This document shows, piece after piece, positions 6,251 to 26,758 of a stretch of DNA of 26,758 nucleotides. Source of the stretch: Clostridiales bacterium (GTDB lineage: Bacteria; Bacillota; Clostridia; Christensenellales; Aristaeellaceae). The notes below the pieces were generated by a model. The model had not been told where the DNA came from. It did not search any database and saw nothing but the letters and a program-made list of their open reading frames with translations. The translations under genes were made by a program, and so were the position numbers. Location of the stretch: contig SVGK01000010.1 in the NCBI GenBank assembly GCA_015056395.1, positions 1-26,758 on the forward strand. The letters are read 5' to 3'. Within the stretch, counting starts at the first letter, position 1. Each line of letters starts with the position of its first letter.

Positions 6251-6264
6251 GGGGGTAGACAGTT

Positions 6265-6447: not shown

Positions 6448-6460
6448 GGAGGCGGCCGAC

Positions 6461-6904
6461 ATGAAACTTCAAGATCTGAAACCCGCCGTTGGCGCGACCA
6501 CCGCGCCCAAGCGCCTTGGACGCGGCGTTGGCTCCGGCCTGGGCAAGACTTCCGGCAAGGGCCACAAGGGCGCCAAGGCCCGTTCGGGCGGCGGCAAGCG
6601 TCCCGGATTCGAGGGCGGCCAGATGCCTCTCACCATGCGCCTTCCCAAGCGCGGCTTTACCAATAAGTTCCGCATCGAGTATGCCACTGTCAACGTCTCC
6701 CGCCTGGACGAGGTGTTCGAGGACGGCGCCGTGGTCACTCCCGTGGAGCTGATCCAGACCGGCATCCTGAAGAACGTGCAGGATGGCGTCAAGATCCTTG
6801 GCGACGGCGAGATCACCAAGAAGCTGACGGTGCAGGCGAACAAGTTCTCTGCATCCGCAAAGGAAAAGATCGAAGCAGCAGGCGGGAAAGCTGAGGTGAT
6901 CTGA
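6461..6904 (+). CDS. rplO: 50S ribosomal protein L15
   Basis: [37 protein letters not shown]... is a canonical L15. RBS AAGGAGG lies upstream. Confidence 0.95.
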
Positions 6905-6905
6905 G

Positions 6906-8189
6906 ATGCGAGAAACGTTGAAGAACGCATGGAAGATCCCGGAGGTCCGTAAAAAGATACTCTACACGCTCTTCATGCTGTTGATTTACCGTCTTCTGTG
7001 CTACGTGCCGTCCCCGGGCGTGCCCGCAAGCTTGCTTTCTCAGATCGAACAATTGATCAACCAGTATTCCCTTCTGGGCTACATGCAGTCCATGTCCGGC
7101 TCGCAGCTGAGCCAGTACACCGTCATGGCCATGGGCATCACGCCCTACATCAACGCAAGCATCATCATGCAGCTCCTCTGCGTCGCCATCCCCCAGCTGG
7201 AGGCGCTGCAGAAGGAGGGCGATGAGGGCCGCAAGAAGATCGCGCAGATCACCCGTTACGTGACGGTGGGCCTGGGCTTCCTGCAGGCCATCGCGCTGAC
7301 CGTGGGCGTGAGCAACATGGCGGGCACCCGCATGAGCTTCCTCTCGATGCTGACCATCGGCTTCTGCCTGGCCGCCGGTACCGCGCTGGCCATGTGGATA
7401 GGCGAGCGCATCACCGAAAACGGCATCGGCAACGGCATCTCGCTGTTGATATTCGCCGGCATCATCTCGAACATCGCCAGCAACCTGGTCGGATACGTCC
7501 GCGCCATCGCCACCGGCACGACCTACAACGGGTCCTCCGCCGTGGCCGGCCTGATCGTCTCCGTGGTGGTGTTCCTGATACTGATCGTGGGTATCGTGTT
7601 CGTGGATCTGGCCGAGCGCCGCATCCCGATACAGTACTCCAAGCGCATGGTCGGCCGCAAGATGTACGGCGGCCAGTCCACGCACATACCGCTCAAGCTG
7701 AACGCCTCCGGCGTGCTGCCGCTGATCTTCGCCAACGCGATCATGCAGTTCCCCAGCACGATACTGGCGTTCTTCCCGAATTCCTCCGCCAACCAGTGGT
7801 GGACCAACCATGTCAGCACGATGTCTGTGCCCTATCAGCTGATATTCGCTCTGCTGATATTCGGCTTCACGTTCTTCTACTCCTCCATCACGTTCGATCC
7901 GGTGGAGATCTCCAAGAACATACAGAACAACGGCGGCATGATCCCCGGCATCCGCCAGGGCAAGCCCACCTCTGACTACATCAAGAAGATCACCCGCCGC
8001 ATCACCACCTTCGGCGCCATCTATCTGGCGGTCCTGGCGGTGCTGCCCGCCATCATCTACGGCATCGGCGGCGTGTCCCTGCGCTTTGCGGCATCCTCCC
8101 TGCTGATCGCCGTCTCCGTCGCGATGGAGACCGTGCGCGAGCTGGAGAGCCAGATGCTCATGCGCCACTACAAGGGCTTCCTGAAGTAA
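6906..8189 (+). CDS. secY: Preprotein translocase subunit SecY
   Basis: 427-aa polytopic membrane protein with conserved SecY motifs (IFAGIISN, GGxxPGIRPG-like GGMIPGIRQGKPT). The start lies 2 nt after the rplO stop. Confidence 0.95.
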   Translation: MRETLKNAWKIPEVRKKILYTLFMLLIYRLLCYVPSPGVPASLLSQIEQLINQYSLLGYMQSMSGSQLSQYTVMAMGITPYINASIIMQLLCVAIPQLEALQKEGDEGRKKIAQITRYVTVGLGFLQAIALTVGVSNMAGTRMSFLSMLTIGFCLAAGTALAMWIGERITENGIGNGISLLIFAGIISNIASNLVGYVRAIATGTTYNGSSAVAGLIVSVVVFLILIVGIVFVDLAERRIPIQYSKRMVGRKMYGGQSTHIPLKLNASGVLPLIFANAIMQFPSTILAFFPNSSANQWWTNHVSTMSVPYQLIFALLIFGFTFFYSSITFDPVEISKNIQNNGGMIPGIRQGKPTSDYIKKITRRITTFGAIYLAVLAVLPAIIYGIGGVSLRFAASSLLIAVSVAMETVRELESQMLMRHYKGFLK

Positions 8190-8199
8190 GCCGGGAGGT

Positions 8200-8850
8200 A
8201 TGACTATGAAGCTGATTTTCCTGGGCCCTCCCGGTGCGGGCAAGGGAACGCAGGCCGCGGGCGTCAGCGCGCACCTGCGCGTGCCGCACATCTCTACCGG
8301 CGATATGTTCCGCTCTGCCATCTCCAACGGCACGCCGACGGGGCTTGAGGCAAAGCGCTACATGGACGCGGGCCAGCTGGTGCCCGACAGCGTCGTGATC
8401 GACATGGTGCGAGAGCGCCTGGCGATGGATGACTGCGCGAACGGCTATCTGCTGGACGGCTTCCCCCGCACGGTGGAGCAGGCCGAGGCGCTGGACGGCA
8501 TATCCGCCCCGGACGCCGTGGTCGAGATCAACGTGCCGGACGAAAGGCTGCTTGCGCGCCTGACGGGCCGCAGGGTCTGCCAGAAGTGCAGCGGCACCTA
8601 CCACATCTCAAAGCTTACGGATGAGAAGGTCTGCCCCGTGTGCGGCGGCGCGCTCATCCAGCGCGACGATGACAAGCCGGAGACGATCGCCAAGAGGCTG
8701 CAGGTCTACCACGACCAGACCTCCCCGCTGATCGGCTACTATCAGGCGCAGGACAAGCTCCGCGTCATCGACGTGGCCTCGCTGGCCACGGTGGATGGCG
8801 ACAGCCGCCCCGAGGATGTGTTCAAGGCCATCCTCGCTTCGCTGGAGTAA
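8200..8850 (+). CDS. adk: Adenylate kinase with a zinc-binding LID (C-x2-C...C-x2-C)
   Basis: P-loop GPPGAGKGTQ. LID cysteines CQKCSGTYH...CPVCGG. The ATG at 8206 (MKLIFLG) has better spacing from RBS GGGAGG (8193-8198) and may be the real start. Confidence 0.94.
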   Translation: MTMKLIFLGPPGAGKGTQAAGVSAHLRVPHISTGDMFRSAISNGTPTGLEAKRYMDAGQLVPDSVVIDMVRERLAMDDCANGYLLDGFPRTVEQAEALDGISAPDAVVEINVPDERLLARLTGRRVCQKCSGTYHISKLTDEKVCPVCGGALIQRDDDKPETIAKRLQVYHDQTSPLIGYYQAQDKLRVIDVASLATVDGDSRPEDVFKAILASLE

Positions 8851-8853
8851 TTC

Positions 8854-9627
8854 ATGATCAAGTTAAAGACAGAGGCACAGATCGAAAAGATGCGCGCAGC
8901 GGGAGTGCTGCTGCACAGCGTACTCACCGCCCTGCGCGCGGCGGCCAGGCCCGGCGTGACGACGCTCGAGCTGGACCGCATGGCCGAGGACATGATCCGA
9001 AGCGCCGGCGCGACGCCGTCGTTCAAGGGCTATGCCGGCTTTCCGTATTCGATCTGCGCATCCATCGACGACCAGGTCGTTCATGGCTTTTCGAACGACA
9101 GGCCCCTTTTGCAGGGACAGCTGCTGAGCATAGACTGCGGCTGCAAGCTGGACGGCTGGCAGTCCGACAGCGCGCTCTCCGTGGTGGTCGGCGGCGGCAA
9201 TGCGGAAGCGCAGCGTCTGATCGACATCACGGAACGCTGCTTCTGGCTGGGCGCTGACATGGCGCGCGAGGGCAACCGCTTAGGCGACATCGGGCACGCG
9301 GTGCAGACCTATGCCGAGAGCATGGGCTGCGGCGTGGTGCGCGACTATACCGGACACGGCATAGGGCGCGAGATGCACGAGGATCCCTCCGTGCCGAACT
9401 ACGGCTACGCCGGCCGCGGCCTCAAGCTTCAGAAGGGCATGACGATCGCCATAGAACCCATGATCACACTGGGCACGTGGAGGACGAAAAAGCTCTCCGA
9501 CGGCTGGACGGCCGTCACGGCCGACGGCTCACTGGCGGCGCACTACGAGCACACCGTGCTGGTGACCGACGGCGAGCCCGAGCTGCTGAGCTTCCCCGGC
9601 GCACGCATTTCGGAGGCGCTTCGATGA
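8854..9627 (+). CDS. map: Type I methionine aminopeptidase
   Basis: Pita-bread-fold metal-binding residues are in context (…HGFSNDRPL…IDCG…HGIGREMHEDP…IEPMI…EHTVLVT). It is in the canonical position after adk. Confidence 0.94.
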   Translation: MIKLKTEAQIEKMRAAGVLLHSVLTALRAAARPGVTTLELDRMAEDMIRSAGATPSFKGYAGFPYSICASIDDQVVHGFSNDRPLLQGQLLSIDCGCKLDGWQSDSALSVVVGGGNAEAQRLIDITERCFWLGADMAREGNRLGDIGHAVQTYAESMGCGVVRDYTGHGIGREMHEDPSVPNYGYAGRGLKLQKGMTIAIEPMITLGTWRTKKLSDGWTAVTADGSLAAHYEHTVLVTDGEPELLSFPGARISEALR

Positions 9628-12792: not shown

Positions 12793-13345
12793 CAGCGGCG
12801 GCCTCCGGGCCGCCACGCTGTCCATCCGTTCCAGTCTGCGGTCAGTTCGAGGCGAGGAACAGCTTCCAGTCCTCATCTGATATGGAAAACTTGTCGACGA
12901 TCTCCTCGTCCGACCAGCCGGTGGTCAGGCGCAGCTTGCGTATCGTGTCGAAGAGGCTGTTCAAGCGCCCCTCGGCGCGTCCTTCTTCGCGTCCCTCTCT
13001 ACGTCCTTCTTCGCGCCCTTCCTGATAGATATCTTCAATGATGCTGCACATTGCACGTACCCCGTGGCCCCTCCGCAGCGGCGGCCTCCAGGCCGCCACA
13101 CCATCGTCCGTTCCCGCCTGCAATCAGTCCGAGGCGAGGAACAGCTTCCAGTCCTCGCTCGATATGGAGAGCTTGTCGACGATCTCCTCGTCTGACCAGC
13201 CTGTGGTCAGGCGCAGCTTGCGGATCGTGTCGAAGAGGCTGTTCAGGCGCCCCTCGGTGCGTCCTTCTTTGCGTCCCTCTTCGCGTCCTTCTTCGCGTCC
13301 TTCTTCGCGCCCCTCCTGATAGATATCTTCCATGATCTTGCACAT
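12793..13345. repeat. Two tandem ~270-284-bp direct repeats (~88% identity) spanning the 3' end of the Rpn-type gene plus its downstream GGCGGCC-n4-GGCCGCC hairpin
   Basis: Copy 1 is ~12793-13060 and copy 2 is ~13077-13345. Both begin CAGCGGCGGCCTCCRGGCCGCCAC and contain ...CGAGGCGAGGAACAGCTTCCAGTCCTC... Confidence 0.85.
12842..13051 (-). pseudogene. Duplicated C-terminal fragment (~69 aa) of the adjacent Rpn/YhgA-type nuclease gene
   Basis: MCSIIEDIYQEGREEGRREGREEGRAEGRLNSLFDTIRKLRLTTGWSDEEIVDKFSISDEDWKLFLASN is ~85% identical to the last ~70 aa of the 13124..13996 product. It arises from a 284-bp tandem DNA duplication. Confidence 0.75.
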
Positions 13346-13996
13346 TTCAAGCGCCCCCTTTGGGTCGTCCTTATAATACCCGCTTCGTTCCGCCATCTCC
13401 TCGTACAGCATATCCCCGGGATCGCTGCACAGGAAATCGTGCATCAGCTTTCCCAGCGCGTCGTCGCCCCTGTACTGGCCGTTGACATACAGTATGTGTT
13501 CGCGGTCGTCGAAGGGCGCGCCGGTGCCCAGGTTGATGCGCTCGACCGGATAAAGCCCCTTCCCCATGCGGAACACGTCGTGCTCCGTGATGAATATGAC
13601 ATAGGTCTCCGGCAGCGCCCTGAAGGGCTGTCCCGCGCTCAGAGCTTCGATGTCCATCGCGGCTGAGTGGTACCGGGCGCGCTCCGGCTCGGCGCCCTCG
13701 TCCGCGCGCTGCACCTCGATGTCATACTGCCTGTGCTTGCTGTCCGTGGCGTGCACGTCCAGCGTCACGGACCGTGCGCCGGCCAGCCGCTTCATGTCGC
13801 GCTGCGTCTCCGCGCCGGTGAGCACCAGGTCGTCCTTGTCCAGTATGATCCTCAGCACGAACTGCGCAAACGGCAGATCGTCGCGGAACATGCAGCGCAT
13901 GAACACGTCGTCAATGGGACGCAGCTGCGCAAGCCGCGCAAGGCTCCGCTCCGTGAACTGCCTGCGCCAGGCCTCGTCGATGTTCATGGCGCACAC
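13124..13996 (-). CDS. Rpn/YhgA-like PD-(D/E)XK family recombination-promoting nuclease / putative transposase
   Basis: The D...IEVQ core (LDVHATDSKHRQYDIEVQRA) is typical of the transposase_31/PDDEXK families. The C-terminal EGREEGREEGREEGRKEGRTEGR repeats and the LNSLFDTIRKL...WSDEEI tail are hallmarks of this family. Confidence 0.75.
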   Translation of the reverse strand: MCAMNIDEAWRRQFTERSLARLAQLRPIDDVFMRCMFRDDLPFAQFVLRIILDKDDLVLTGAETQRDMKRLAGARSVTLDVHATDSKHRQYDIEVQRADEGAEPERARYHSAAMDIEALSAGQPFRALPETYVIFITEHDVFRMGKGLYPVERINLGTGAPFDDREHILYVNGQYRGDDALGKLMHDFLCSDPGDMLYEEMAERSGYYKDDPKGALEMCKIMEDIYQEGREEGREEGREEGRKEGRTEGRLNSLFDTIRKLRLTTGWSDEEIVDKLSISSEDWKLFLASD

Positions 13997-14162
13997 CTCC
14001 TCTGCTCCGAATCTATTATATCATGGATACGAACGGCGCGCAAGGTGTTCGCAGCGCGTTGCGTTTCGGTTAATTGCATTCGGATGGTATAGACCCCTTG
14101 AAATCAGCGTCCACATAGATTATACTAATGTAAATAGGTATGCCCTGAAGGAGAGTGAGCCC

Positions 14163-15923
14163 ATGAGCAAGTTCTTTATCGAATGCCCGGCCTGTCACCG
14201 CTACAGCCAGGCCTCCACGTCCCTGTTTGCCAGCCGGCGCATACGCTGCGCCTGCGGCTTCACCATCGACGTCAAGGCGGACCGCATCACCACGCGCGTC
14301 TGTCCGTCCTGCGGCAATTCCATCGCTTTCGACCAGGCGAAGGGCGCGACGGCGAAGTGCCCCATATGCAGGGCGCAGCTGCTCACGCCGGAGAGCATGA
14401 ACAGCCTGGTCACGTTCGCGTGCCGCACCTGCGGCTGCACGCTGCAGGCGAACAAGGGCGCGCAGCAGATCACGTGCCCCCTGTGCGACACGGTCAACGA
14501 CGTGCAGGCCGAGGTCAAGCTCGCGGCGCAGCGCGCGCAAGGCACGCCGCAGGTCATACGCTACGAGGGCGACAACATGACGTTCGTCTGGCGGCACCCC
14601 GCGACGGACTTCGTGATGGGCTCGCAGCTGATCGTGCACGAGAGCCAGGAGGCTCTGTTCTTCCGCAACGGCGAGGCGCTGGATTCGTTCCCAGCGGGAC
14701 GCTACACGCTCGAGACCGCGACGCTGCCGCGCATGAATGGCCTGCTGCCGCTGCCTGTGCAGGGACAGCCCTTCCACGCGGAGGTCTTCTTTGTCAACCT
14801 GACCACGCAGATGGGCATCAAATGGGGCACCAACAGCAAGGTCGGACTGTTCGACCCGGCCAGCGGCCTGCATGTGGAGCTGGGCGCGTCCGGCAGCTTC
14901 AACCTGCGCGTGACGGACCCGCGGCGGCTCGTGATCCGCCTGGTCGGCACCACGGACAGGCTGACGCAGGAGCAGGTGTTCGGGCACGACGGCGGCTACT
15001 TCCGCACGCTGGTCATGACGAAGGTCAAGGCGAACCTCGCGCGCGTGATCAGGGAGAACCGCATATCCGTGCTGGAGCTGGACCAGCACATCGACGTGAT
15101 CGGCGAGGCGCTGCGCACGCAGATCAACGCGGAGTTAGAGGAATACGGCATGACCATGCCTGAGTTCTACGTCGCCAACATACTGACGCCGGACGACGAC
15201 CCGAACTTCAGGCGCATGAAGCAGCAGCACGCGGAGCTCTACCTGCGCACGCGCGAGGAGGAGATCCGTAAGGCCGAGGCGGAGGCGGCGTTCGAGCGCA
15301 AGGCGGTCGAGGCGCAGACGCAGGCGCGCATGAAGGTGATCGGCGCGCAGGGCGAAGCCGACGCCATGCGCATACAGGCGCAGGCCCAGGCGGACGCCTA
15401 CCGCATGCAGGCGGAGGCGGAGGCGCAGGAGATGCGCATGAAGGGCTACACCTACCAGCAGGAGACGACGCGCCAGGTCGCCACGGAGGCGGTCAAAAAC
15501 GGCGGCGCGGGCGGCTTGGCCGGCGACGTGACGGGCGTGCTGGGTGGCGCGATGCAGCTGGGCCTCGGCCTGGGCGCGGCCGGCAGCGTGATCGGCATGA
15601 CGAAGGACGCGCTGGGCGCGATGAACGCGGCCGTGCCGCAGGCGCCCGCCGCGACGGACGACGGCTGGACGTGCGAGGGCTGCGGCTGCACGGGCAACAC
15701 GACGAACTTCTGCCCGAACTGCGGGCGGCGGCGGCCCGAGGCAGGCTGGACGTGCCCGGGCTGCGGGCAGGCGGGCATCACGACGAACTTCTGTCCGAAC
15801 TGCGGGAGGCGACGGCCCGAGGCGGGCTGGACGTGTCCCGGCTGCGGGCTCACGGGCATCACGACGAACTTCTGTCCGAACTGCGGCGCCAAGAAGGGTG
15901 AGAAGGGAGATGTCGAGGGATGA
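14163..15923 (+). CDS. SPFH/Band-7 (YdjI-like, Band_7_1) domain protein fused to multiple zinc ribbons
   Basis: RBS GAAGGAGAG at 14148-14156, then ATG at 14163; the ORF-track start at 13650 is an unsupported extension. The N-terminus has three CxxC...CxxC pairs. The central segment (IRYEGDNMTFVWRHPATDFVMGSQLIVHESQEALFFRNGEALDSFPAGRYTLETATLP...FHAEVFFVNLTTQMGIKWGT) resembles B. subtilis YdjI-type SPFH. An A/E/Q-rich coiled coil, a Gly-rich linker, and three GWTCPGCG..TTNFCPNCG zinc-ribbon repeats follow. Confidence 0.8.
   Translation: MSKFFIECPACHRYSQASTSLFASRRIRCACGFTIDVKADRITTRVCPSCGNSIAFDQAKGATAKCPICRAQLLTPESMNSLVTFACRTCGCTLQANKGAQQITCPLCDTVNDVQAEVKLAAQRAQGTPQVIRYEGDNMTFVWRHPATDFVMGSQLIVHESQEALFFRNGEALDSFPAGRYTLETATLPRMNGLLPLPVQGQPFHAEVFFVNLTTQMGIKWGTNSKVGLFDPASGLHVELGASGSFNLRVTDPRRLVIRLVGTTDRLTQEQVFGHDGGYFRTLVMTKVKANLARVIRENRISVLELDQHIDVIGEALRTQINAELEEYGMTMPEFYVANILTPDDDPNFRRMKQQHAELYLRTREEEIRKAEAEAAFERKAVEAQTQARMKVIGAQGEADAMRIQAQAQADAYRMQAEAEAQEMRMKGYTYQQETTRQVATEAVKNGGAGGLAGDVTGVLGGAMQLGLGLGAAGSVIGMTKDALGAMNAAVPQAPAATDDGWTCEGCGCTGNTTNFCPNCGRRRPEAGWTCPGCGQAGITTNFCPNCGRRRPEAGWTCPGCGLTGITTNFCPNCGAKKGEKGDVEG
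15657..15899 (+). repeat. Three near-perfect 81-bp (27-aa) tandem repeats inside the SPFH gene, each encoding one C4 zinc ribbon
   Basis: GGCTGGACGTG recurs at 15663, 15744 and 15825 with an exact 81-nt period. The encoded units are GWTC[EP]GCGxxGxTTNFCPNCGRRRPEA. Confidence 0.9.
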
Positions 15924-16664: not shown

Positions 16665-17655
16665 CGTAGCGGTGGCGTCTACGCCGCCATATCCCTCGCC
16701 ATTCCCGCCAGGGAATGCGAAACGACCGAAGGACCTCATCCGGCCCTCACGGGCCACCTTCCCCAAAGGGCAACGCTGTCAACTTTGAACAAGGACATAA
16801 CAAATCATAGATATACGTCGTCCAGCGGGAATGGCGGCTGATAGCCGCCGCTACGGATCACATGATCTGCAAATGTAACCGCATAAACGGCACGGGATCG
16901 TCTTAAGTTGACAGCGTTGCCCCAAAGGGGAAGGCAAGGTCCGCCATTCAATATACGATCCGCCGTCGTACCTCGCCCATCGGTCCCGAGGACGATGATC
17001 AACAGACAAAGAGACGATCGGCCCACGAATGTACCCATATCACAGCTCGGCACGCCCGATCCTCGCCCGGAGCGGCGTCCTGTCGACGCCGTCTCCGCGA
17101 CAAAACCTCGAGCCGTCCGCTCCTATCCGACCTTGATCCCCGAGCTGACGTGGCCCGTTGGACCGCGTACAGCACAGCCACCGCGCCGAAGGCGCGGCGC
17201 GAAGCGTCCTTGAGGGTCCTCATGCTGTCTGCTAAACTGAAGCACACGGCGGCGTGATAAGGTTTCGTTTCCAACCTCTCACCCGTCGCCGTGGCCTCAT
17301 ACAAGCAGACAGCAGGAGGTTCATCAAGGATGGCGGCCGGACGAGGTATCCGTCCCCCCCAACGACCCCGTAGCGGCGGCTATCAGCCGCCACATCCCTC
17401 GCCATTCCCAACAGACAAGCCGAAACGACCGAAGGACCTCATCCGGCCCTCACGGGCCACCTTCCCCAAAGGGCAACGCTGTCAACTTAAGGCGATCCCG
17501 TTTTGGTTGTGCAGCTACATCTGCAGATCGTGTGATCCGTAGCGGCGGCTATCAGCCGCCATTTCCGACGCACAACGTATACCCGTGATTTGTTATGGTC
17601 TTGTTAAAAGTTGACAGCGTTGCCCCAGAGGGGAAGGCAAGGTCCGTCATTTGAA
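16665..17655. mobile_element. Non-coding MITE-like composite repeat: ~115-bp inverted arms (16827-16943 and 17455-17566) around a ~500-bp core, with extra partial copies on both sides
   Basis: The left arm and the reverse complement of the right arm align at ~85% (GGAATGGCGGCTGATAGCCGCCGCTACGGATCACAYGATCTGCA...CTTAAGTTGACAGCGTTGCCC...). Direct repeats 16665-16786 and 17369-17488 share an identical 66-bp block at 16721-16786 and 17424-17488. There is a further fragment at 17609-17652. The only ORFs here are spurious GC-frame ORFs. Confidence 0.6.
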
Positions 17656-17791
17656 TACAAGATCGACCGCACCCCCCAGAATCACGGCCAGCGTTCGATC
17701 TCCGGCCAATAATTCCGAAACACCCGGAGGGTGTCTAGCGAAGCGTCGATTCCGAATTACCCCATCCCCCCACGACCAAAGGAGCAACACC

Positions 17792-20700
17792 ATGATCATC
17801 TTCAAATGCAAATCCTGCGGCGGCGACCTGTCCTTCGAGCCGGGCGCGAGCGTCGCGGAATGCCCCTACTGCGGCGTGAAGCAGACGCTGCCGAAGCTGG
17901 ACGACGACAAGCGCGCGAACCTCTACGACCGCGCCAACCACTTCCGCCGCCAGAACGAGTACGACAAGGCCATGGCGATCTACGAGCAGATACTGTCCGA
18001 GGACCGCACGGACGCCGAGGCGTACTGGTCGCTGGTGCTGTGCCGCTACGGCATAGAGTACGTCGAGGACCCCGTTACGCGCAAGCGCGTGCCCACGGTC
18101 AACCGCGCGCAGTACGCCTCCGTGCTGGCGGACGACGACTACAAGTCGGCGCTTCAATACGCGGACCCTGCGCAGCGCGTGCTCTATGAATCGGAGGCGG
18201 AGGCCATCGCGGAGATACAGCGCGGCATATTGGACATCTCGCGCAAGGAGCAGCCCTTCGACGTGTTCATCTGCTACAAGGAGACGGACGCGAACGGCCG
18301 CCGCACGCCGGACAGCGTGCTGGCGACGGACCTGTACCACCAGCTGACGAAGGAGGGCTTCCGGGTATTCTTCTCGCGCATCACGCTGGAGGACAAGATC
18401 GGCACGGCGTACGAGCCGTACATATTCGCGGCGCTGAACAGCGCGAAGGTGATGGTGGTGCTGGGCACGAAGCCGGAGTACTTCAACGCGGTGTGGGTGA
18501 AGAACGAGTGGAGCCGCTACCTTGCGCTGATACGCGCGGGCGCGGAGAAGGTGCTGGTGCCCGCGTACCGCGACATGGACCCCTATGACCTGCCGGAGGA
18601 GTTCGCGCACCTGCAGGCGCAGGACATGGGCAAGCTGGGCTTCATGCAGGACCTGATACGCGGCATCAAGAAGCTGACCGCGAAGGACGATCCGAAGCCC
18701 GCGCGGCCCGCAGCGCAGACCGTGGTCGCGGGCCCCGGCGCGAACATAGAGAACCTGATGAAGCGCGCGCGGCTCTTCATGGAGGACGGCAACTGGATGA
18801 GCGCCACGGAGTACCTGGACAAGGTGCTGGACGAGAATGCCGAGTACGCGCCCGCCTACGCGGGCAAGGTGCAGGTCTCGCTGCGCATGAAGCGGGAGGC
18901 CGAACTGGCCGGGAGCCTCACGGACTACGAAGGCGACCCCGACTGGCAGAGGGCGCTGCGCTTTGCCGCGCCCGAACAGCGGAAGGTTTACGAGGGGTAC
19001 GCGGCGCAGGCGGCGGAGGCGCGGGAGGAGAAGCGCAAGGAAGACATCTATGCCGGAGCGGCCGCCATGCTCGCAAAGGCCGATACGCCCGCCGCGTGCC
19101 GCGCGGCGAAGGCGGAATTTGCGAAGATCCCGCTGCACAGGGACGCGGGCGCGAAGGTGCGCGAGTGCGAGGAGAAGGCGAGGCGCATCGAATACGACGC
19201 GCTCCTCACCAGATACAAGGACGTGGCCAGGGACTATAACAGCGTCTCAAAGGCCGAGAGGCTTGAGGCGCTTGCGGCGGAGTTCGATGCGTTCAGGGGC
19301 ACCGACATGCCCGGGCGCTGCCGCGCGGAGGCGGAGCAGTGCCGCGCGGCGCTCTATGACGAGGCCGCCGAGGCCATGCGGAAGAGCGCGCAGGCACAGC
19401 AATTCGAAAAGGCGGCGGAGCTGTTCAGACGGCTGGGCGCCTACAGGGACGCGCAGGCGCAGGCGCGAAAGTGCTCGGACAGCGCGGCGGAAGTCAAACG
19501 CGCCGACGAGCTGCGCGCCGCGCGTGAACGCGAGGAGCAGGAGCGCAGGATAGAGAAGGAGCGCGCCAGACAGAAGAGGAACAGGGTGCTCCTGTCGTTG
19601 CTGGTGCTCGTGCTGGCGGCGGGCGCGCTGGCCTATCTGTACGTGCTGAAGCCCATGATGGCCTATGACAAGGCGGTTGGGGCGATGGAGGCGGGAAACT
19701 ACGACGAGGCGACGGCGCTGTTTGAAGAGATGGGAGACTACAGGGACGCCGCTGTACAGGCGCAGGAGAGCCAATACAGGAAGGGTCTGTCGTTGATGAA
19801 CAGCGGAAAATACGATGCGGCTGTAGAGGTGTTCAACAGTATCGGCAGTTACGGCGATAGTTCCGCAAAGGCAAAACAGGCACAGGCAGACAAATTGTTT
19901 GATGCGGGATATTACGCCGAAGCGTATGCGGCATACATCGCATTGGATTCGGAGTATCAAACACATAAAGACGATTACGAGCAGATGTACGTCGATGCAT
20001 CGAGGCTGTTTGCGGATGGTGATTATGATGGCGCCAGCATGGCGTTTAATTCGATCGCGGGATACAAGGATTCAACAACACAGGCAAAGGAGAGCCAATA
20101 CCAGAAGGGCCTGTCGTTGATGAACAGTGGGCAATATGATGCAGCTGTAGAGGTATTCAACAGTATCAGCAGTTACGGCGATAGTTCTACGAGAGCAAAA
20201 CAGGCACAGGCAGATGAATTGTTTGCTGCGGGGAATTACGCCGAAGCATATATGGTTTACGCCGCATTGGATACGGGATATCAAACACACAAAGACGATT
20301 ACGAGCAAATGTACGTCGATGCATCGAAGCAATTTGCGGATGGTGATTATGACGGCGCCAGCAAGGCGTTTAATTCAATTGCAGGATACAAGGATTCAGT
20401 AACACAGGCAAAGGAGAGCCAGTACCAGAAGGGCCTGTCGTTGATGAACAGCGGGCAATATCATGCAGCTGCGGTGGCATTCAAGAGCCTTGGCAGTTAC
20501 AACGACGCCGCGACACAAGCGCAGGAGAGCCAGTACCAGAATGGCCTGTCGTTGATGAAAATTGGGCAATACGATGCGGCTGTGGAGGTATTCAAGAGCC
20601 TTGGCAGTTACAACGACGCTGCGACACAGGCGCAGGAGAGCCAATATCGGAAAGGCATGTCGTTGATGGAGAGCGAGGAGTATGATGCGGCTACGGAGGT

Positions 20701-21484
20701 GTTCGATGGCCTCAGTAATTACAACGACGCCGCGACAAAAGCGCAGGAGAGCCAGTACCTGAAGGCGGCGGCGCTGAACACAGCGGAGAATTACGATGAA
20801 GCTTATCTGGTCTATGCGTCCATAGCCGGCTATAAGGATGTTGACAGCATCGTCAAAAACGACGGTAATATTTCAGCAGCAGCCTGGCGCGCGCAGTTAT
20901 ACGTCGGCAATACGGTGACCTTCGGCGCGTACGACCAGGACGGCGATACCTCAAACGGCGCGGAGGCCATCGAATGGATCGTGCTGGCGAACGACGGCAA
21001 GACGGCGACGCTGATTAGCAGATACGGTCTGGACGCGAAGCCCTACAACACTGAACAAGAATATGTGACCTGGGAGACATGCACGCTGCGGAAATGGCTG
21101 AACGGCGATTTCCTGAACGCGGCCTTTTCGGCGGACGAGAGGGCGAAGCTTGAAACGGTCAAGGTCACGGCGGACAGGAATCCCAAGAATTTTATCGATC
21201 CCGGCAACGACACGCAGGACAAGGTCTTCCTGCTGTCCATAGACGAGGCGAACAAGTATTTCAGCTCTGATTCGGACCGCATGTGCAAGCCCACGAAGAC
21301 GGCAGTCAAGAATGGAGCAAGCACGAACAGCTCGGGTGCGTGCTGGTGGTGGCTGCGGTCGCCCGGCTACTATCCTAGCCTCGTCGCATACGTCCGCGAC
21401 GACGGTTCGGTCTACTACGACGGCTGCGGTGTCTACAACGGCGATCTCGCTGTTCGGCCGGTCGTGGTGCTGCGGCTTTCATAG
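17792..21484 (+). CDS. Large single-pass membrane protein (1230 aa): N-terminal zinc ribbon, TPR-like region, TIR domain, helical repeat region, TM helix, ~12 degenerate 37-38-aa extracytoplasmic repeats, DUF6273-like C-terminal domain
   Basis: RBS AAAGGAG at 17778-17784 and ATG at 17792 (MIIFKCKSCGGDLSFEPGASVAECPYCG); the ORF-track start at 17651 is an unsupported extension. The TIR region at ~18254-18680 reads QPFDVFICYKETD...EGFRVFFS...VMVVLGTKPEYFNAVWVKNEWSRYLAL, with the conserved W-x3-E at 18494-18508. The TM helix RVLLSLLVLVLAAGALAYLYVL lies at ~19585-19650. Repeats fit the pattern G.Y.DA..QA.ESQY.KG. The C-terminus (TVTFGAYDQDGD...IEWIVLANDGKTATLISRYGLD...VTWETCTLRKWLN...KVFLLSIDEA...ACWWWLRSPG...AVRPVVVL) matches my recollection of DUF6273. 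Confidence 0.8.
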   Translation: MIIFKCKSCGGDLSFEPGASVAECPYCGVKQTLPKLDDDKRANLYDRANHFRRQNEYDKAMAIYEQILSEDRTDAEAYWSLVLCRYGIEYVEDPVTRKRVPTVNRAQYASVLADDDYKSALQYADPAQRVLYESEAEAIAEIQRGILDISRKEQPFDVFICYKETDANGRRTPDSVLATDLYHQLTKEGFRVFFSRITLEDKIGTAYEPYIFAALNSAKVMVVLGTKPEYFNAVWVKNEWSRYLALIRAGAEKVLVPAYRDMDPYDLPEEFAHLQAQDMGKLGFMQDLIRGIKKLTAKDDPKPARPAAQTVVAGPGANIENLMKRARLFMEDGNWMSATEYLDKVLDENAEYAPAYAGKVQVSLRMKREAELAGSLTDYEGDPDWQRALRFAAPEQRKVYEGYAAQAAEAREEKRKEDIYAGAAAMLAKADTPAACRAAKAEFAKIPLHRDAGAKVRECEEKARRIEYDALLTRYKDVARDYNSVSKAERLEALAAEFDAFRGTDMPGRCRAEAEQCRAALYDEAAEAMRKSAQAQQFEKAAELFRRLGAYRDAQAQARKCSDSAAEVKRADELRAAREREEQERRIEKERARQKRNRVLLSLLVLVLAAGALAYLYVLKPMMAYDKAVGAMEAGNYDEATALFEEMGDYRDAAVQAQESQYRKGLSLMNSGKYDAAVEVFNSIGSYGDSSAKAKQAQADKLFDAGYYAEAYAAYIALDSEYQTHKDDYEQMYVDASRLFADGDYDGASMAFNSIAGYKDSTTQAKESQYQKGLSLMNSGQYDAAVEVFNSISSYGDSSTRAKQAQADELFAAGNYAEAYMVYAALDTGYQTHKDDYEQMYVDASKQFADGDYDGASKAFNSIAGYKDSVTQAKESQYQKGLSLMNSGQYHAAAVAFKSLGSYNDAATQAQESQYQNGLSLMKIGQYDAAVEVFKSLGSYNDAATQAQESQYRKGMSLMESEEYDAATEVFDGLSNYNDAATKAQESQYLKAAALNTAENYDEAYLVYASIAGYKDVDSIVKNDGNISAAAWRAQLYVGNTVTFGAYDQDGDTSNGAEAIEWIVLANDGKTATLISRYGLDAKPYNTEQEYVTWETCTLRKWLNGDFLNAAFSADERAKLETVKVTADRNPKNFIDPGNDTQDKVFLLSIDEANKYFSSDSDRMCKPTKTAVKNGASTNSSGACWWWLRSPGYYPSLVAYVRDDGSVYYDGCGVYNGDLAVRPVVVLRLS
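19766..20413 (+). repeat. Two tandem 324-bp (108-aa) intragenic direct repeats (~88% identity) within the extracytoplasmic repeat region of the TIR protein gene
   Basis: GAGAGCCAATAC recurs at 19766, 20090 and 20414 with an exact 324-nt spacing. This stretch (~19690-20830) has visibly lower GC (~50%) than the 5' half of the gene (~70%). Confidence 0.85.
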
Positions 21485-21607: not shown

Positions 21608-22492
21608 ATGAACGGAAGACCAGGCATCCTCTTTCTCGGCAACGGCATCAACCGACTGTTCAATGACGATCCGTGGGACAAGATGATCCGCGACCAGCTC
21701 GCCCTGTCGGGCCATCGCTACACGTGGGAACAGATCAGGAACATACCGCCCACGATGCAGATCGTACTTGCGACGAACGATCAGGTCGACGCCCGCCTCA
21801 AGCAGATCGCAAAGGAGCTGGAACAACAGCGCATACAGGACGAACGCGCCGCTTTCCTGCGCAGGCTCGCCGGTATGGATGTCGACTGCGTAATGACGGC
21901 GAATTATTCTCTCGAGATCGAAAAGGCATTCGGGCTGAAGGAAAGCTGCGCCTCCTACAGGCGGCGCCTGAACAGGACCATCGAAGCAAACGGCCTGCGC
22001 GACGATTTTCGTCTGTACCAATATTATCCCCTCGAGCGGGCGGACGGAAGGACGATGCCGCTTTGGCACGTGCACGGCGACATCGCGAAGCCTCGCTCCA
22101 TGATCATGGGCCATTACTACTACGCAAGGCATCTGCGCGAGATACAGGACCGCGTCGGCGTTATGATGCGCGTCGTTCGGGGCTGTGAACGGGCCGGCTC
22201 GACGTTCCATCCGCAAAGCTGGGTCGATGCGTTTCTGATAAGCGACGTGTTCATGCTCGGCTTTGGGCTGTATCTGTGTGAGTCCGATTTGTGGTGGCTG
22301 CTCTGCTGCAAGAAGCGCAACTTCCCCGATACGAAGGTGTTCTTCTACGGCGAGGCGACGAATGATGTCCGGCTGCTGCTGGAGGCCTATGGCGGCGAAA
22401 CGCAGGACGAGATCAGCCGGATCGGAGAAGACGGCTATATGCGCTTTTATGAAAGGGCGATCGCGGATATCGAACGAAAGCTGGAACATTAG
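21608..22492 (+). CDS. Stand-alone SIR2-like (SIR2_2 / DSR-ThsA-type sirtuin fold) protein, 294 aa, no additional sensor domain
   Basis: The N-terminal ILFLGNGINRLFNDDPWDKMI fits the SIR2_2 consensus lFlGAGxS...PxW..L. VMTANYSLEIEKA fits TTNYDxLlE (catalytic Asn retained). LWHVHGDIAKPRSMIMGHYYY fits iyKlHGs...lvlt.edY (catalytic His retained). DVFMLGFGLYLCESDLWWLL fits llfiGYSl.D. RBS AAAGAGGTG lies upstream. The gene is 124 bp downstream of, and co-directional with, the TIR gene. Confidence 0.65.
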   Translation: MNGRPGILFLGNGINRLFNDDPWDKMIRDQLALSGHRYTWEQIRNIPPTMQIVLATNDQVDARLKQIAKELEQQRIQDERAAFLRRLAGMDVDCVMTANYSLEIEKAFGLKESCASYRRRLNRTIEANGLRDDFRLYQYYPLERADGRTMPLWHVHGDIAKPRSMIMGHYYYARHLREIQDRVGVMMRVVRGCERAGSTFHPQSWVDAFLISDVFMLGFGLYLCESDLWWLLCCKKRNFPDTKVFFYGEATNDVRLLLEAYGGETQDEISRIGEDGYMRFYERAIADIERKLEH

Positions 22493-22574
22493 TTGGATGT
22501 CCAGAGGGACAAGGACCGCGATCCTGCATGATCGGTGTCATTGATGTATGTCCTGCCCATGCCCTCAATAACGT

Positions 22575-23545
22575 ACCACCGTAGGGACGCCCCATGGGGC
22601 GTCCGCGTGCCCGATCCCGGCACGCACCGCGCAACGTCTTTACGAACCGCATCCCGTAGGGACGCCATTCATGGCGTCCGCCGCGCGTGAGCGCACCGTT
22701 ATCCGTTTCCCCGCAGGGCGCGTTTTCCCCGCGATCCGCCATTGCGGACACACGCAGGGGGAACGTGGCGGCGTAGACGCCGCCGCTACGGATGTTGTTA
22801 TATCACTTGAAGGATGGCGGACAAGGCGCGGCAAGCAACGCTCCTGCGGCGACACATCGCCGCCATTCCGTACACCGACCGTCCTGTCGCCCACGCCGCA
22901 CAGAGCATGACCCTCCGTAGGGACGCCCCATGGGGCGTCCGCGTGCCCGATCCCGGCACGCACTGCGCAACGTCTATACGAACCACATCCCGTAGGGGCG
23001 CCATCCATGGCGCCCGCGCCCTCATCCCGGCATGAACCGCGCAACATCCACACGAAACCGCATCCCGTAGGGACGCCATTCATGGCGTCCGCCTGCGCGT
23101 GAGCGCACCGTTATCCGTTGCCCTACAGGACGCATATCCCCCGCGATCTGCCATCATGAACACGGGGCACGTGGCGGCGCAGACGCCGCCGCTACGGGTG
23201 TTGTTATATATCACCTAACGATGGGGGCGGATGGGGCGCGGCAAGCGACGACCCTGCGGCGACACATCGCCGCCATTCCGTACACCGACCGCCCTGTCGC
23301 CCGCGCCGCACAGAGCATGACCCTCCGTAGGGACGCCCCATGGGGCGTCCGCGTGCCCGATCCCGGCACGCACTGCGCAACGTCTATACGAACCACATCC
23401 CGTAGGGGCGCCATCCATGGCGCCCGCCCGCGCGTAAGCGCACCGTTATCCGTGGCCTCCCAAGGCGCATATCCCCCGCGATCCGTCATCACGAGCGCGG
23501 GGGAACGTGGCGGCGCAGACGCCGCCGCTACGGGTGGTGTTCTTG
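22575..23545. repeat. Three tandem non-coding units (~330, ~420, ~230 bp), each with a perfect 20-bp palindrome GGACGCCCCATGGGGCGTCC, a second palindrome GGRCGCCATYCATGGCGYCC ~75 bp later, and a GTGGCGGCG-yAGA-CGCCGCCGCTACGG hairpin
   Basis: Palindrome A occurs at 22585, 22919 and 23339. Palindrome B or variants occur at 22660, 22995, 23080 and 23413. The CGCCGCCGCTACGG hairpin occurs at 22773-22800, 23171-23198 and 23507-23535. Sequence between the palindromes is itself repeated, so these are not CRISPR spacers. Confidence 0.8.
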
Positions 23546-23603
23546 GACCACCTTTCGCATTTGCGAGCAACGAGTGGTGGATGAGGGCGCAGCATTTTAC
23601 ATG

Positions 23604-23645
23604 AGGGCCTGTTCCCTTCGCGAGAGGGAACGGGCCCTTTTCTTA
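23604..23645 (+). terminator. Stem-loop GGGCCUGUUCCCU-ucgcgag-AGGGAACGGGCCC followed by TTTTCTTAT; terminator-like, first of two near-identical copies
   Basis: 13-bp stem with one G-U pair plus a T-tract on the + strand. It lies immediately 3' of the minus-strand SWIM gene stop (23648), so it is probably bidirectional. The second copy is at 24097-24140. Confidence 0.55.
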
Positions 23646-23647
23646 TG

Positions 23648-23983
23648 TCATTTGCCGAGCACGGTTTCCGCAAACCTGTCGCGGCAGCGCTTTTCAAGCT
23701 CTTTTTCCTGCTGCTTTTTGTAGGCGATGTATTCAAGTACGGCGTTTTTGTCGATGACGCCGCATTCGAGCATGAGGCGGGCGATGTGCTTGCACGGGGC
23801 GTCCTTCTTCTTTCCCCTGATCTGGAAATCGGGGCAGTCGCATTCTTCGAGCGTCGCGTGGTAGATGTCGCCGTTGGAGCCGACGAACACGGCGGAGGGC
23901 ACGCCGGTTTCGATCGACTGCACATTCACGTCCAAGGCGCGAATAGCGGTCTTGTCGTCGAGGTTCCTGTAAGAAATTGCCAT
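23648..23983 (-). CDS. Small SWIM zinc-finger protein (111 aa)
   Basis: CDCPDFQIRGKKKDAPCKHIARL matches the SWIM CxCxnCxH signature. RBS AAAGGAAG lies 6 nt before the ATG at 23983. GC is intermediate. Confidence 0.7.
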   Translation of the reverse strand: MAISYRNLDDKTAIRALDVNVQSIETGVPSAVFVGSNGDIYHATLEECDCPDFQIRGKKKDAPCKHIARLMLECGVIDKNAVLEYIAYKKQQEKELEKRCRDRFAETVLGK

Positions 23984-24096
23984 GGGGATGCACTTCCTTT
24001 CTGGTCGATGCGGTTATGAGGTGCATATCAGCTTTCGAACGGTGATGTATAATAGAAATGCAAATCGGACAAGTGGTGTTGGCTGATTTTGCATGT

Positions 24097-24140
24097 GGGC
24101 CTGTTCCCTTCGCGAGAGGGAACGGGCCTTCTTATTTCTT
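24097..24140 (+). terminator. Second copy of the GGGCCTGTTCCCTTCGCGAGAGGGAACGGGCC stem-loop plus TTCTTATTTCTT, abutting the stop of the minus-strand secreted-protein gene
   Basis: Identical 32-bp hairpin and similar flank (ATTTTRCATGWG upstream) to the copy at 23604. Confidence 0.5.
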
Positions 24141-24689
24141 GGTCGGGGCAACAACAAGCAAATAACTTTCGATGTATTCGGGGTTCCAGATGTAATAGGT
24201 GGCATAGCGGCCAATGTGATAGGGGATACGCGCGCCGGGCGTCAAGATGGATCCTGCATTTCTGAAAACATTCATAGTCTTCTCATAGAACCCTTTTGAA
24301 TCGGACATTATGGACAAAACCTGATCATGCGATATATTCGGGAAACTTGTGTACTCAAGCGCAGAATACAGGGCCATGAGCTTGAAGGCGTCTTCAACAG
24401 ACAAGTCGTCAGTGGATATGTTGACGTTCAACGGAAAATCTACAGACAATGTAGCGAAAGATGAAGCATCGTACTGAATCGTAATCATGTCATAGCCCAT
24501 CGCGGAAGTGGCATCGTTCACATCGGCAAAAACTGGGTCAGCTTTGAACGGATAGCCATACAGCGAACACCATCCAGCATATGTGGCTGCAATCCTTGAA
24601 GGCGTATCAAAGCCGGACGAAGCATCTGCGAGAGCGAAACCGGACAATATGAGTGCGAGCAAGAGCAGTATAACAACAAGTCTTTTCAT
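24132..24689 (-). CDS. Secreted hypothetical protein with N-terminal signal peptide (185 aa), lower-GC gene
   Basis: ATG at 24689 preceded by GGAGGTG with a 7-nt spacer. MKRLVVILLLLALILSGFALADAS is a signal peptide. The ORF-track start at 24734 lacks an RBS. GC is ~45-50% versus >65% for flanking DNA. Confidence 0.7.
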   Translation of the reverse strand: MKRLVVILLLLALILSGFALADASSGFDTPSRIAATYAGWCSLYGYPFKADPVFADVNDATSAMGYDMITIQYDASSFATLSVDFPLNVNISTDDLSVEDAFKLMALYSALEYTSFPNISHDQVLSIMSDSKGFYEKTMNVFRNAGSILTPGARIPYHIGRYATYYIWNPEYIESYLLVVAPTKK

Positions 24690-24747
24690 GTGAAACACCT
24701 CCATTAGGTCCATATTCCGTGACGGCACGTTCATGGATTCAGGATAA

Positions 24748-25131
24748 CTATGCCGTTATGGACGCGCCATCTTCCTTTTGCATGTCCGGGTTGCCTGCGA
24801 AGGCGCGGGCTGTGTTCAGGAGGGTGGTTTGGGCGTCGTGGTTCAGGGAACGGAACAGGGAAAGAAGCTCAGATTCCTGTTCTGTAAGCGGAACGGATAA
24901 TTCATATTTTGGGGGTTCAGAGTAGAATTCAGCGATGCTGTTGATTCCATAGATCTCACACAGGCGAAAGAGCATATCAGCGTCCGGCTGGCCCCGGCCA
25001 TGCTCCCAGCCCGATACGGTCTTATCGCTTTTACCGATCATTTCGCCAACTTCTCTTGCTGTCAAGCCTGCCATTATTCGGAAATCATGCAGCTTGGCGG
25101 CGAGGGCTTTTCTGATTTCTTGTTCTTTCAC
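24748..25131 (-). CDS. XRE-family (Cro/CI-type) helix-turn-helix transcriptional regulator, 127 aa
   Basis: GTG start at 25131 preceded by GAGGTGA. The HTH reads LTAREVGEMIGKSDKTVSGWEHGRGQPDADMLFRLCEIY, and there is a C-terminal extension. Confidence 0.85.
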   Translation of the reverse strand: MKEQEIRKALAAKLHDFRIMAGLTAREVGEMIGKSDKTVSGWEHGRGQPDADMLFRLCEIYGINSIAEFYSEPPKYELSVPLTEQESELLSLFRSLNHDAQTTLLNTARAFAGNPDMQKEDGASITA

Positions 25132-25150
25132 GGAATCTCACCTCAAAAGA

Positions 25151-25179
25151 AGTATACAACCATTTTAGCTATATTGCAA
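25151..25179 (-). promoter_or_regulatory. Sigma-70-type promoter for the minus-strand XRE regulator (-35 TTGCAA, 17-nt spacer, -10 TATACT)
   Basis: Reverse complement of 25151-25179 reads TTGCAAtatagctaaaatggttgTATACT. Located ~20 nt upstream of the RBS. Confidence 0.55.
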
Positions 25180-25219
25180 GACAAATCCTTAAATAATGAG
25201 AATTAATTGATAAAATGGC

Positions 25220-25248
25220 TTGACAGTCTATGATTTTAAGAGTATTAT
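25220..25248 (+). promoter_or_regulatory. Divergent sigma-70 promoter (-35 TTGACA 25220-25225, 17-nt spacer, -10 TATTAT 25243-25248) flanked by three TTAAGAG/CTCTTAA operator-like repeats
   Basis: Consensus -35 with near-consensus -10. TTAAGAG recurs at 25236-25242 and 25271-25277, and an inverted CTCTTAA at 25262-25268 brackets the -10. Confidence 0.65.
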
Positions 25249-25291
25249 ATATCCACGCTCTTAAAATTTAAGAGATTGAGAGGTGGTTAAT

Positions 25292-25507
25292 GTGTATCAC
25301 ATCAAAGATGTCGCTACTGTAGTTGAGGAAAGACGCAGTGAATTTGGTATGACGGTTCGCGCATTGTCTCAAAAGAGCGGCGTCAGCGAAGGCGCTTTGT
25401 ATAGGATCCTTGGCGGCCATTGAAAGATGACCGCATCGGAACTGCTGTCGCTCTCGGAGGTATTGCATTTGACGTTCGATGACTATCGATCTGAAGAGGC
25501 GGTGTGA
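25292..25507 (+). pseudogene. Small XRE-family HTH gene interrupted by an in-frame TGA (25421-25423); Cro-like partner of the divergent regulator
   Basis: GTG at 25292 after RBS AGAGGTGG. Translation is MYHIKDVATVVEERRSEFGMTVRALSQKSGVSEGALYRILGGH-*-KMTASELLSLSEVLHLTFDDYRSEEAV*. Both halves together make one canonical HTH_XRE domain in a single frame. Confidence 0.55.
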
Positions 25508-25509
25508 AT

Positions 25510-25761
25510 ATGGCGCGGATGAGCGTTGAGGAGCTGGCGGCGCTTCCGGGCGTCGCGGTCGGAACGAAAGAAGCCGCGGCGGTGCTGGGGTGCGACAGGT
25601 ATTCGCTGACCATCGCCGCGAAGTGCGGGATGCTGGGGCTGCCGCACTTCTTCTCCGGGAACAGGCTCAAGATCAGCAAGGCGGCGCTGCTTGAATTCTG
25701 CGGCGCGCACGGCGCGACGGGTGAAGTGCCCATCGTGCCGGGAAAGGGCGTGAAGGCGTGA
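25510..25761 (+). CDS. Excisionase/MerR-like helix-turn-helix (HTH_17, Xis-type) DNA-binding protein, 83 aa
   Basis: MARMSVEELAALPGVAVGTKEAAAVLGCDRYSLTIAAKCGMLGLPHFFSGNRLKISKAALLEF. The ATG at 25510 immediately follows the upstream stop. Confidence 0.65.
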   Translation: MARMSVEELAALPGVAVGTKEAAAVLGCDRYSLTIAAKCGMLGLPHFFSGNRLKISKAALLEFCGAHGATGEVPIVPGKGVKA

Positions 25762-25997
25762 AGATCATCGCGGTGGACTTTGACGGGACGCTGTGCGAGA
25801 GCGCTTGGCCGGACATCGGCAAGGCGCACTGGGGCGTGATCAACCAGCTCGTGAAGCGGCAGGCCGAGGGCGACAAGATCATACTTTGGACGTGCCGGAC
25901 GGGAAAGCAGCTGGAGGAGGCCGTCAAGTGGTGCACAAACCACGGGATACGGTTCAAAGCCGTGAAGCGACGCCCCTACGGCGACGCATCATCGTGA
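25758..25997 (+). CDS. Small HAD-motif protein (DxDGT motif I; phage-associated type), 79 aa
   Basis: The GTG start overlaps the upstream stop. VKIIAVDFDGTLCESAWPDIG... is HAD motif I, followed by ILWTCRTG (motif II-like Thr). Confidence 0.55.
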   Translation: MKIIAVDFDGTLCESAWPDIGKAHWGVINQLVKRQAEGDKIILWTCRTGKQLEEAVKWCTNHGIRFKAVKRRPYGDASS

Positions 25998-26039
25998 TCG
26001 CGCTAAACCGATCCGATGTATACGCACATATGATTTTGC

Positions 26040-26165
26040 GCACGACATAGGCCGTTCCCGCAGGGGCACCATCCATGGCGCCCGCCACACGTGAGCGCAT
26101 GTTACCCATCTTCCCGTAGGGACGCCCCATGGGCGCCCGCGTTCCCCATGCCCGACACACCGAAA
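26040..26165. repeat. Partial, degenerate copy of the palindromic repeat family seen at 22575-23545
   Basis: GGGCACCATCCATGGCGCCC (near-palindrome) ... CACGTGAGCGCA ... CCCGTAGGGACGCCCCATGGGCGCCCGCG match the palindrome B and A types of the downstream array. Confidence 0.6.
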
Positions 26166-26222
26166 CAGAGCCGCCGCGCGCCATCTGCGCACGGCGGCTC
26201 CGCCTGTCATCTCAACGCTCTT

Positions 26223-26758
26223 TTACTTGAGCAGCTCGTTGAACTCGTCCTGCATGGCCTGGAGGTTCGCGTCCACCTCGCCGGTGGAGAGCATCTCGGT
26301 CATGTAGTCGTCAAAGCGGGTGAAGATCTCCTGCGTGTTCTTGTCGGCGGCGGGCAGCGGCACGCCCCAGCCGTCCTTGGACGCGCCTAGGAAGGCCTCG
26401 GTGTTGAAGTCCGCATAGGCCTCGGCCCACATGTCGTCGCAGCCCTCGTAGGCGGGGATGACGACCTGGGCGGTCATGGCCTGCGCCTCGGCGGTGCCCA
26501 TCCACTCAAGGAAGGTCTTGACCTCTTCGGGATGCTCGGTGGTGGCGGCGCCGACCCAGCTCAGCGAGTGGGACACGGTCTTGCGCTCGGCCATGGTCGG
26601 CAGCGGGGCCACGCCCAGCCTGTCGCCGAACACGCCCACATAGGTGCCCATGTTCCAGGAGCCATTGAAGGTCATGGCGATCATGCCGGACTGGAAGCGG
26701 GTGTCGGCGTCCAGCTCGACCTGGTCTTCGACGGTGGGAGATACGCCTTCCACGAGTA
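26223..26758 (-). CDS. ABC transporter extracellular solute-binding protein, C-terminal part (N-terminus beyond window end)
   Basis: The frame is open to the window edge. The C-terminal sequence ...GVAPLPTMAERKTVSHSLSWVGAATTEHPEEVKTFLEWMGTAEAQ...DEFNELLK is typical of family-1 sugar SBPs. Stop at 26223-26225. Confidence 0.75.
   Translation of the reverse strand, partial: LVEGVSPTVEDQVELDADTRFQSGMIAMTFNGSWNMGTYVGVFGDRLGVAPLPTMAERKTVSHSLSWVGAATTEHPEEVKTFLEWMGTAEAQAMTAQVVIPAYEGCDDMWAEAYADFNTEAFLGASKDGWGVPLPAADKNTQEIFTRFDDYMTEMLSTGEVDANLQAMQDEFNELLK

Follow-up and report, generated by a model that had tools for sequence, protein, structure and literature searches.

An in-frame opal stop in the cro-like gene of a 1.9 kb prophage relic from an uncultured Clostridiales bacterium

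The interrupted gene and its immunity region

The window, which is the entire 26,758-bp contig of a genome named at NCBI as "MAG: Clostridiales bacterium", carries on its forward strand at 25292-25507 a cro-like gene of the XRE/HTH_3 type that is now a pseudogene, as judged from its translation, Pfam match, homologues and synteny. The frame has 71 codons, running from a GTG start at 25292, with a Shine-Dalgarno sequence (GAGAGGTGG) at 25278-25286, to a natural stop TGA at 25505-25507, and is interrupted by an in-frame TGA at 25421-25423. Translation of 25283-25507 gives VVNVYHIKDVATVVEERRSEFGMTVRALSQKSGVSEGALYRILGGH, a stop, KMTASELLSLSEVLHLTFDDYRSEEAV and the natural stop; read from the GTG the part before the internal stop is MYHIKDVATVVEERRSEFGMTVRALSQKSGVSEGALYRILGGH, whilst the same frame beyond it gives KMTASELLSLSEVLHLTFDDYRSEEAV. 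The initial annotation had described a complete XRE helix-turn-helix domain broken by this opal codon, and the description stands. Membership of XRE/HTH_3 (PF01381) was taken as a score above the Pfam gathering cut-off across the domain; the joined cro sequence reaches 27.8 bits where 23 are needed, its residues 16-67 matching profile positions 3-54 of 55, and the match requires both halves. The bridged sequence also aligns end to end with 11 intact homologues, which are single open-reading frames of 71-73 aa sharing 63-72% identity with it. Since both the alignment and the HTH_3 match span the stop, cro is, on these comparisons, a truly interrupted gene rather than a chance pair of open-reading frames.

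The codons ahead of the stop (25292-25420, translation and AlphaFold model) form a 43-codon N-terminal remainder holding helices 1-3 only, and the 43-aa product that the initial annotation had foreseen is well founded, as the GTG has a ribosome-binding site and aligns with the GTG starts of the intact homologues. The segment after the stop (25424-25504) holds helices 4-5 and opens with a Lys and a Met that are invariant in the family, the Met codon being the ATG at 25427, 3 nt past the stop, and no new start. Neither the 43-codon fragment nor the post-stop fragment is predicted by any gene caller in a 15-billion-protein collection, and cro itself has no NCBI accession, the flanking accessions being MBE5807009.1, MBE5807010.1 and MBE5807011.1. 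A 66-aa open-reading frame on the other strand (25268-25468) lies across the conserved frame of cro and has no support as a functional gene.

Upstream, a promoter for cro (TTGACA-17-TATTAT, 25220-25248, + strand) matches 11 of 12 consensus positions and is conserved in intact phages. Operator-like repeats lie at 25233-25274, with one half-site, TTTAAGAG, between the -35 and -10 boxes (25235-25242) and a palindrome, CTCTTAAA-A-TTTAAGAG, at 25258-25274 (inverted repeat I3, 100% complementary); these repeats, which are conserved with the phage loci L007, L012 and L013, are putative operators. The whole region between cro and cI is conserved between the window and intact phages. Divergent from cro is an intact cI-like XRE repressor of 127 aa (MBE5807009.1, 24748-25131, - strand; Pfam HTH_3, 3.5e-11), for which we found 95 homologues of about 125-129 aa. 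With promoter, operator-like repeats and repressor all intact, decay of the module has not been uniform.

Downstream of cI on the same strand lies a signal-peptide/lipoprotein-like gene (24132-24734, 185-200 aa, called from its open-reading frame and synteny) with no family match among Pfam and PHROG profiles, its position matching that of a 213-220-aa gene of intact phages. On the cro side follows a small gene of 83 aa (MBE5807010.1, 25510-25761, + strand) with a weak Pfam HTH_17 match, the start of which overlaps the cro stop.

The fold of the family was modelled with AlphaFold on the homologue P0003 (pLDDT 86). The model has five helices, at residues 7-18, 22-29, 33-40, 48-57 and 62-65, in the arrangement of the lambda-repressor-like fold, and Foldseek matched it to HipB, C.Esp1396I, SinR-N, 434 Cro (2cro) and P22 c2 at TM scores of ~0.7 (0.70/0.76 against 2cro), whilst a PDB sequence search with the cro family returned no match. 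Like the 434 Cro and P22 C2-type regulators, the family consists of all-helical helix-turn-helix proteins of ~70 aa; unlike those solved structures, to which its sequences are only ~15-23% identical, it belongs to an uncultured Clostridiales host, its copy in the window is broken by a stop, and its DNA binding and antagonism of cI are putative. The residue replaced by the stop sits in the loop between helices 3 and 4, and the window product ends after helix 3. As helices 4-5, which complete the XRE fold, are missing, we infer from the model that the 43-aa product is non-functional.

Intact relatives and the extent of the relic

Intact prophage loci (L007-L010 and L019) share a fixed gene order. 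One strand encodes a large serine recombinase/integrase, a secreted/lipoprotein-like protein of 213-220 aa and the 127-aa cI-like XRE repressor; the other encodes the 71-aa cro, a 72-aa gene, a HAD-like gene of 151-169 aa, DUF1064, dUTPase, SSB and other early genes. Within these temperate phages the cro-like gene is the first rightward gene of the early operon and diverges from the cI-like repressor, and the window copy occupies the same position as in L007 and L019. From this gene order the 71-aa gene is the Cro-position partner in a lysis-lysogeny switch, similar to lambdoid immunity regions, in which cro and a cI-like repressor gene diverge from a promoter/operator region that they share. 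A role in binding shared operators and antagonising repressor synthesis is putative, the sites seen being operator-like palindromes. A tblastn search against cultured phages gave no match.

The initial annotation had placed the interruption in an otherwise intact context, which does not hold: the neighbourhood is a truncated prophage remnant of ~1.9 kb (~24041-25955) that has lost its integrase and rightward genes. Only three of 18 L007 proteins were found by tblastn in the whole window, these being the repressor (66% identity at full length), cro (70%) and the HAD-like protein over its residues 1-69. As in a prophage remnant, there is a lesion at a conserved residue that intact homologues lack, the integrase, replication and later rightward genes are gone, and the genes at the edges are truncated.

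At the right edge, a 79-aa open-reading frame (25758-25997, + strand) is the truncated remainder of a HAD/PNKP-phosphatase-like phage gene, covering only positions 22-96 of 155 in PHROG 1238, where the L007 orthologue has 169 aa. Contig L033, which is 98% identical here, encodes an intact protein of 145 aa (P0179) and diverges from the window past residue 66, exactly after 25955, and from this comparison 25955 is the right deletion breakpoint. The nucleotide identity of 98% to L033 includes the 83-aa gene region. When L033:1-852 is set against window 25493-25955, the two are 98% identical from the last four cro codons (EEAV and the stop) onwards and differ upstream. The relic is a mosaic in GC content, with 46.8% in 24041-25503 and 64.4% in 25504-25964 against a background of 61%; L033 shares only the high-GC part, and the mosaic junction at the cro 3' end coincides with the jump in GC.

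At the left edge, phage homology begins at a TATAAT box at 24041, the -35 box and the integrase beyond it being missing. The remnant end (24041-24136, + strand) resembles a phage small-RNA element, with the -10 box, a 33-nt hairpin at 24060-24092 and a terminator at 24097-24129. Candidate small RNAs of this kind lie between the integrase and the lipoprotein gene at L007:1791-1894, L019:1778-1878, in L030-L032 and at L015:1064-1150, as well as at the window position, and share a layout of TTGAC(A/T)-17-TATAAT, a 33-mer, a variable GC hairpin that shows compensatory changes, and a T-run. Almost invariant, the 33-mer (GCAAATCGGACAAGTGGTGTTGGCTGATTTTGC) folds as a 12-bp hairpin; it is the same, base for base, in L007-L010 and L030-L032, phages that share no more than 70% identity in the flanking genes. 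No Rfam match was found for the candidate small RNA.

To the right of the relic lies a host ABC-transporter operon, to the left a SWIM-finger gene along with clustered palindromic repeats rich in GC. The SWIM zinc-finger-like gene (23648-23983, - strand, 111 aa) stands at the integrase position of the intact phages, and next to it, at 23594-23644, the terminator hairpin of 24086-24136 recurs in a second copy with 90% identity. The REP-like cluster occupies 22480-23545 and 26056-26143 in units of ~336-410 bp; one example, TCCCGTAGGGGCGCCATCCATGGCGCCCGCC, occurs in five copies within 3 mismatches, and copies flank the relic on both sides (23398-23428 and 26056-26086). The number of units varies among assemblies, L001 being one unit short. 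These repeats may have mediated the deletions in the relic.

Defective prophage remnants are exemplified by the cryptic prophages of E. coli K-12. Like those, the relic has lost integrase and structural genes, has truncated genes at its edges, and retains an intact repressor beside a regulator inactivated by a point change; it differs in being very small (~1.9 kb) and in its place within a MAG, where a REP-like cluster lies on one side and an ABC-transporter operon on the other.

Origin and age of the internal stop

The alignment of homologues identifies the residue that the stop at 25421-25423 has replaced. The stop column is Arg in 11 of 11 close homologues and also in the more distant P0108, P0109 and P0129; the codon is CGG in L007-L010, L012 and L013 and AGA in L011/L014, and a change from AGA or CGA to TGA takes a single step. 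Given Arg in all homologues, the lesion is, from this alignment, an Arg-to-opal nonsense mutation. The comparison of orthologous loci that had been proposed thus returned, for each homologue, one open-reading frame with Arg rather than two conserved small genes. The wider family gave the same picture, as relatives collected by profile search of 1.84 billion representative proteins are nearly all single open-reading frames of 65-75 aa covering the whole profile; no half-length protein family was found in that search, and no stop at the cro column occurs in the 11 close homologues or in the distant relatives. The few aberrant relatives break at differing points (P0107 after residue 53, P0129 after ~51, L015 after RKM), which indicates, at the level of sequence, sporadic damage rather than a conserved recoding site.

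The damaged member at L015:2334-2489 is found in a locus without an integrase open-reading frame, and this locus may be another relic of independent origin. P0003 (L017:4986-5201 and L018), the closest homologue at the C-terminus, lies downstream of a portal gene and a Cys-rich CPCC gene, in an arrangement with all genes on the same strand and no divergent repressor called.

Copies of the locus were sought through exact matches to neighbouring proteins in other assemblies (ENA, JGI and Logan). This yielded 11 distinct contigs, all with the same TGA, that derive from at least 10 other metagenome samples, which may not be independent populations; each contig is 100% identical to the window over whatever part of 24001-26222 it covers. 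Searches for closer relatives returned little: an exact-pattern scan with NNN at the stop codon gave 0 matches in genome contigs and 0 in viral contigs, and profile-guided scans gave 0 confirmed relatives in genome contigs, one locus in viral contigs and five in metagenome contigs, none above 73%. A repressor-based search for relatives of the window immunity type likewise found nothing between 72% and 100% identity. As no relative above ~72% identity shares this immunity region, neither the ancestral codon nor the mutation's age can be read directly.

Between the window cro and its nearest relatives synonymous sites are saturated (pS 0.65-0.97). The post-stop part has a pN of 0.07-0.15, where intact homologues have 0.02-0.17, and the pre-stop part is more diverged (pN 0.22-0.29). 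With post-stop non-synonymous divergence no higher than among intact homologues, the comparison suggests that the stop is young relative to the deep divergence from relatives. At columns that are otherwise invariant, the window cro differs by five private changes (E4H, M5I, C8V, N39R and R45stop; homologues 0-3) and the window repressor by two (homologues 0-2). These private changes and the pre-stop divergence would fit a relaxation of constraint on cro as well as a divergent specificity, the two being inseparable here. Because the copies found do not differ from one another, selection is unmeasurable in the post-stop segment, whose good preservation agrees with a recent mutation but would agree with continued use as well.

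We therefore consider it highly probable that an Arg codon in the cro-like gene of this 1.9-kb prophage relic has genuinely mutated to opal and that the nonsense mutation is fixed, and we infer that the mutation is recent and has no programmed role. Of the origins put forward in the initial annotation, a recent nonsense mutation in a decaying switch is the one borne out, by the invariant Arg, the prophage relic and the lack of excess amino-acid change after the stop. In outline, a serine-integrase prophage in the uncultured Clostridiales MAG was the parent, and deletions removed its integrase at the left and everything past the first 66 HAD-like codons at the right. The single-codon change would have inactivated the Cro-type early rightward regulator of its temperate-phage immunity module: translation would end after 43 residues (helices 1-3), giving a product expected to be non-functional, and would be uncoupled from that of the overlapping 83-aa gene downstream.

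Within this decay reading, the relic may have been kept as a "locked" immunity cassette because its cI-like repressor protects the host from related phages, loss of Cro being favoured or tolerated since it removes an antagonist of repressor expression. The full-length repressor, with private substitutions within the range of its homologues, the promoters and operator-like repeats conserved with intact phages, and the fixation of the relic, with no difference among at least 10 samples, all agree with this. However, the copies offer no sequence variation for a test of purifying selection, a 384-nt open-reading frame can remain open by chance for a while, and the neighbouring relic genes are simply truncated, and we regard retention for immunity as unlikely.

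Programmed or tuned UGA readthrough, or termination-reinitiation at TGA-AAG-ATG, would instead yield the 43-aa peptide together with a share of Cro in full-length or two-piece form. Among bacterial stop codons UGA is the leakiest, conservation past the cro stop is good, and ATG 25427 follows closely; yet this ATG is the family's invariant Met and lacks a Shine-Dalgarno sequence of its own, near-cognate decoding would insert a residue other than the invariant Arg, and the homologues offer neither a stop nor a half-length family. Stimulatory structure is also lacking: the 89 nt around and past the stop fold no better than shuffled sequence, with a minimum free energy of -22.6 kcal/mol where shuffles average -24.0 (z = 0.44), and an Rfam scan of 22000-26758 gave no passing match, only two sub-threshold chance hits. 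As the locus is a relic, there is nothing left to switch, and we consider such a mechanism very improbable. The option of programmed readthrough giving two products was accordingly not upheld, the stop being unconserved, the RNA unstructured and TGA an ordinary stop here. A UGA lying in frame within a recognisable domain, in a gene of phage origin, does recall programmed UGA recoding and stop-reassigned phages; the cro stop differs in being unconserved, in having no SECIS or stimulatory structure, in the use of TGA as a stop in the same gene and its neighbours, and in the conserved Arg. There is a similarly slim chance that the relic is a domesticated immunity cassette in which the UGA is tolerated or exploited for traces of full-length or two-piece Cro, by readthrough or by reinitiation at TGA-AAG-ATG; were this so, the leaky UGA would keep Cro very scarce but not absent, alongside a repressor expressed constitutively. 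No relevant precedent emerged from a search of the literature.

An alternative genetic code or selenocysteine, with TGA as a sense codon in host or phage-derived genes, is scarcely credible even though stop-codon-recoded phages are known in gut and rumen metagenomes, since TGA terminates four ribosomal-protein-operon ORFs (cluster 1-9627), cro and both genes downstream of it, L007 cro and also map, where its reported use as a genuine stop is upheld by a match to profile positions 1-245 of 247, and since the homologues have Arg rather than Trp, Gly or Cys, a tRNA search of the window found none and hence no suppressor, and no SECIS-like hairpin is present. A sequencing or assembly error hiding a sense codon in cro, the other option raised initially and plausible beforehand only because the contig comes from a MAG, is effectively excluded by the recurrence of the identical TGA in the 11 contigs, which come from different pipelines. 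Phase variation at the stop was considered and rejected, the site having no repeat tract.

The nonsense mutation is of minor biological weight, as a clean case of gene decay in a prophage relic, and its annotation should give cro as a pseudogene interrupted by an internal stop rather than as a candidate for recoding. The locus can serve as a calibration case: where an in-frame stop appears in a small helix-turn-helix gene beside a cI-like repressor, prophage truncation should be checked before recoding.

Other genes of the window

Further from the relic, at 17651-21484 (+ strand), the window encodes a protein of 1277 aa that combines TIR_2 and numerous TPR repeats with DUF6273 at its C-terminus; around 19740-20766 this gene contains internal repeats 111 nt and 324 nt long. 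The adjoining gene (21608-22492, + strand) encodes a 294-aa protein with a sub-threshold SIR2_2 match. The pair looks, from these domains, like defence genes; PADLOC gave no useful match on the neighbouring genes, this pair included. Elsewhere, an Rpn-family recombination-promoting nuclease/transposase-like gene (13124-13996, - strand) overlaps the 5' part of an open-reading frame at 13650-15923 (+ strand) whose SPFH/Band_7 domain begins only at residue 313, and the true start of the SPFH gene is probably well downstream of 13650.
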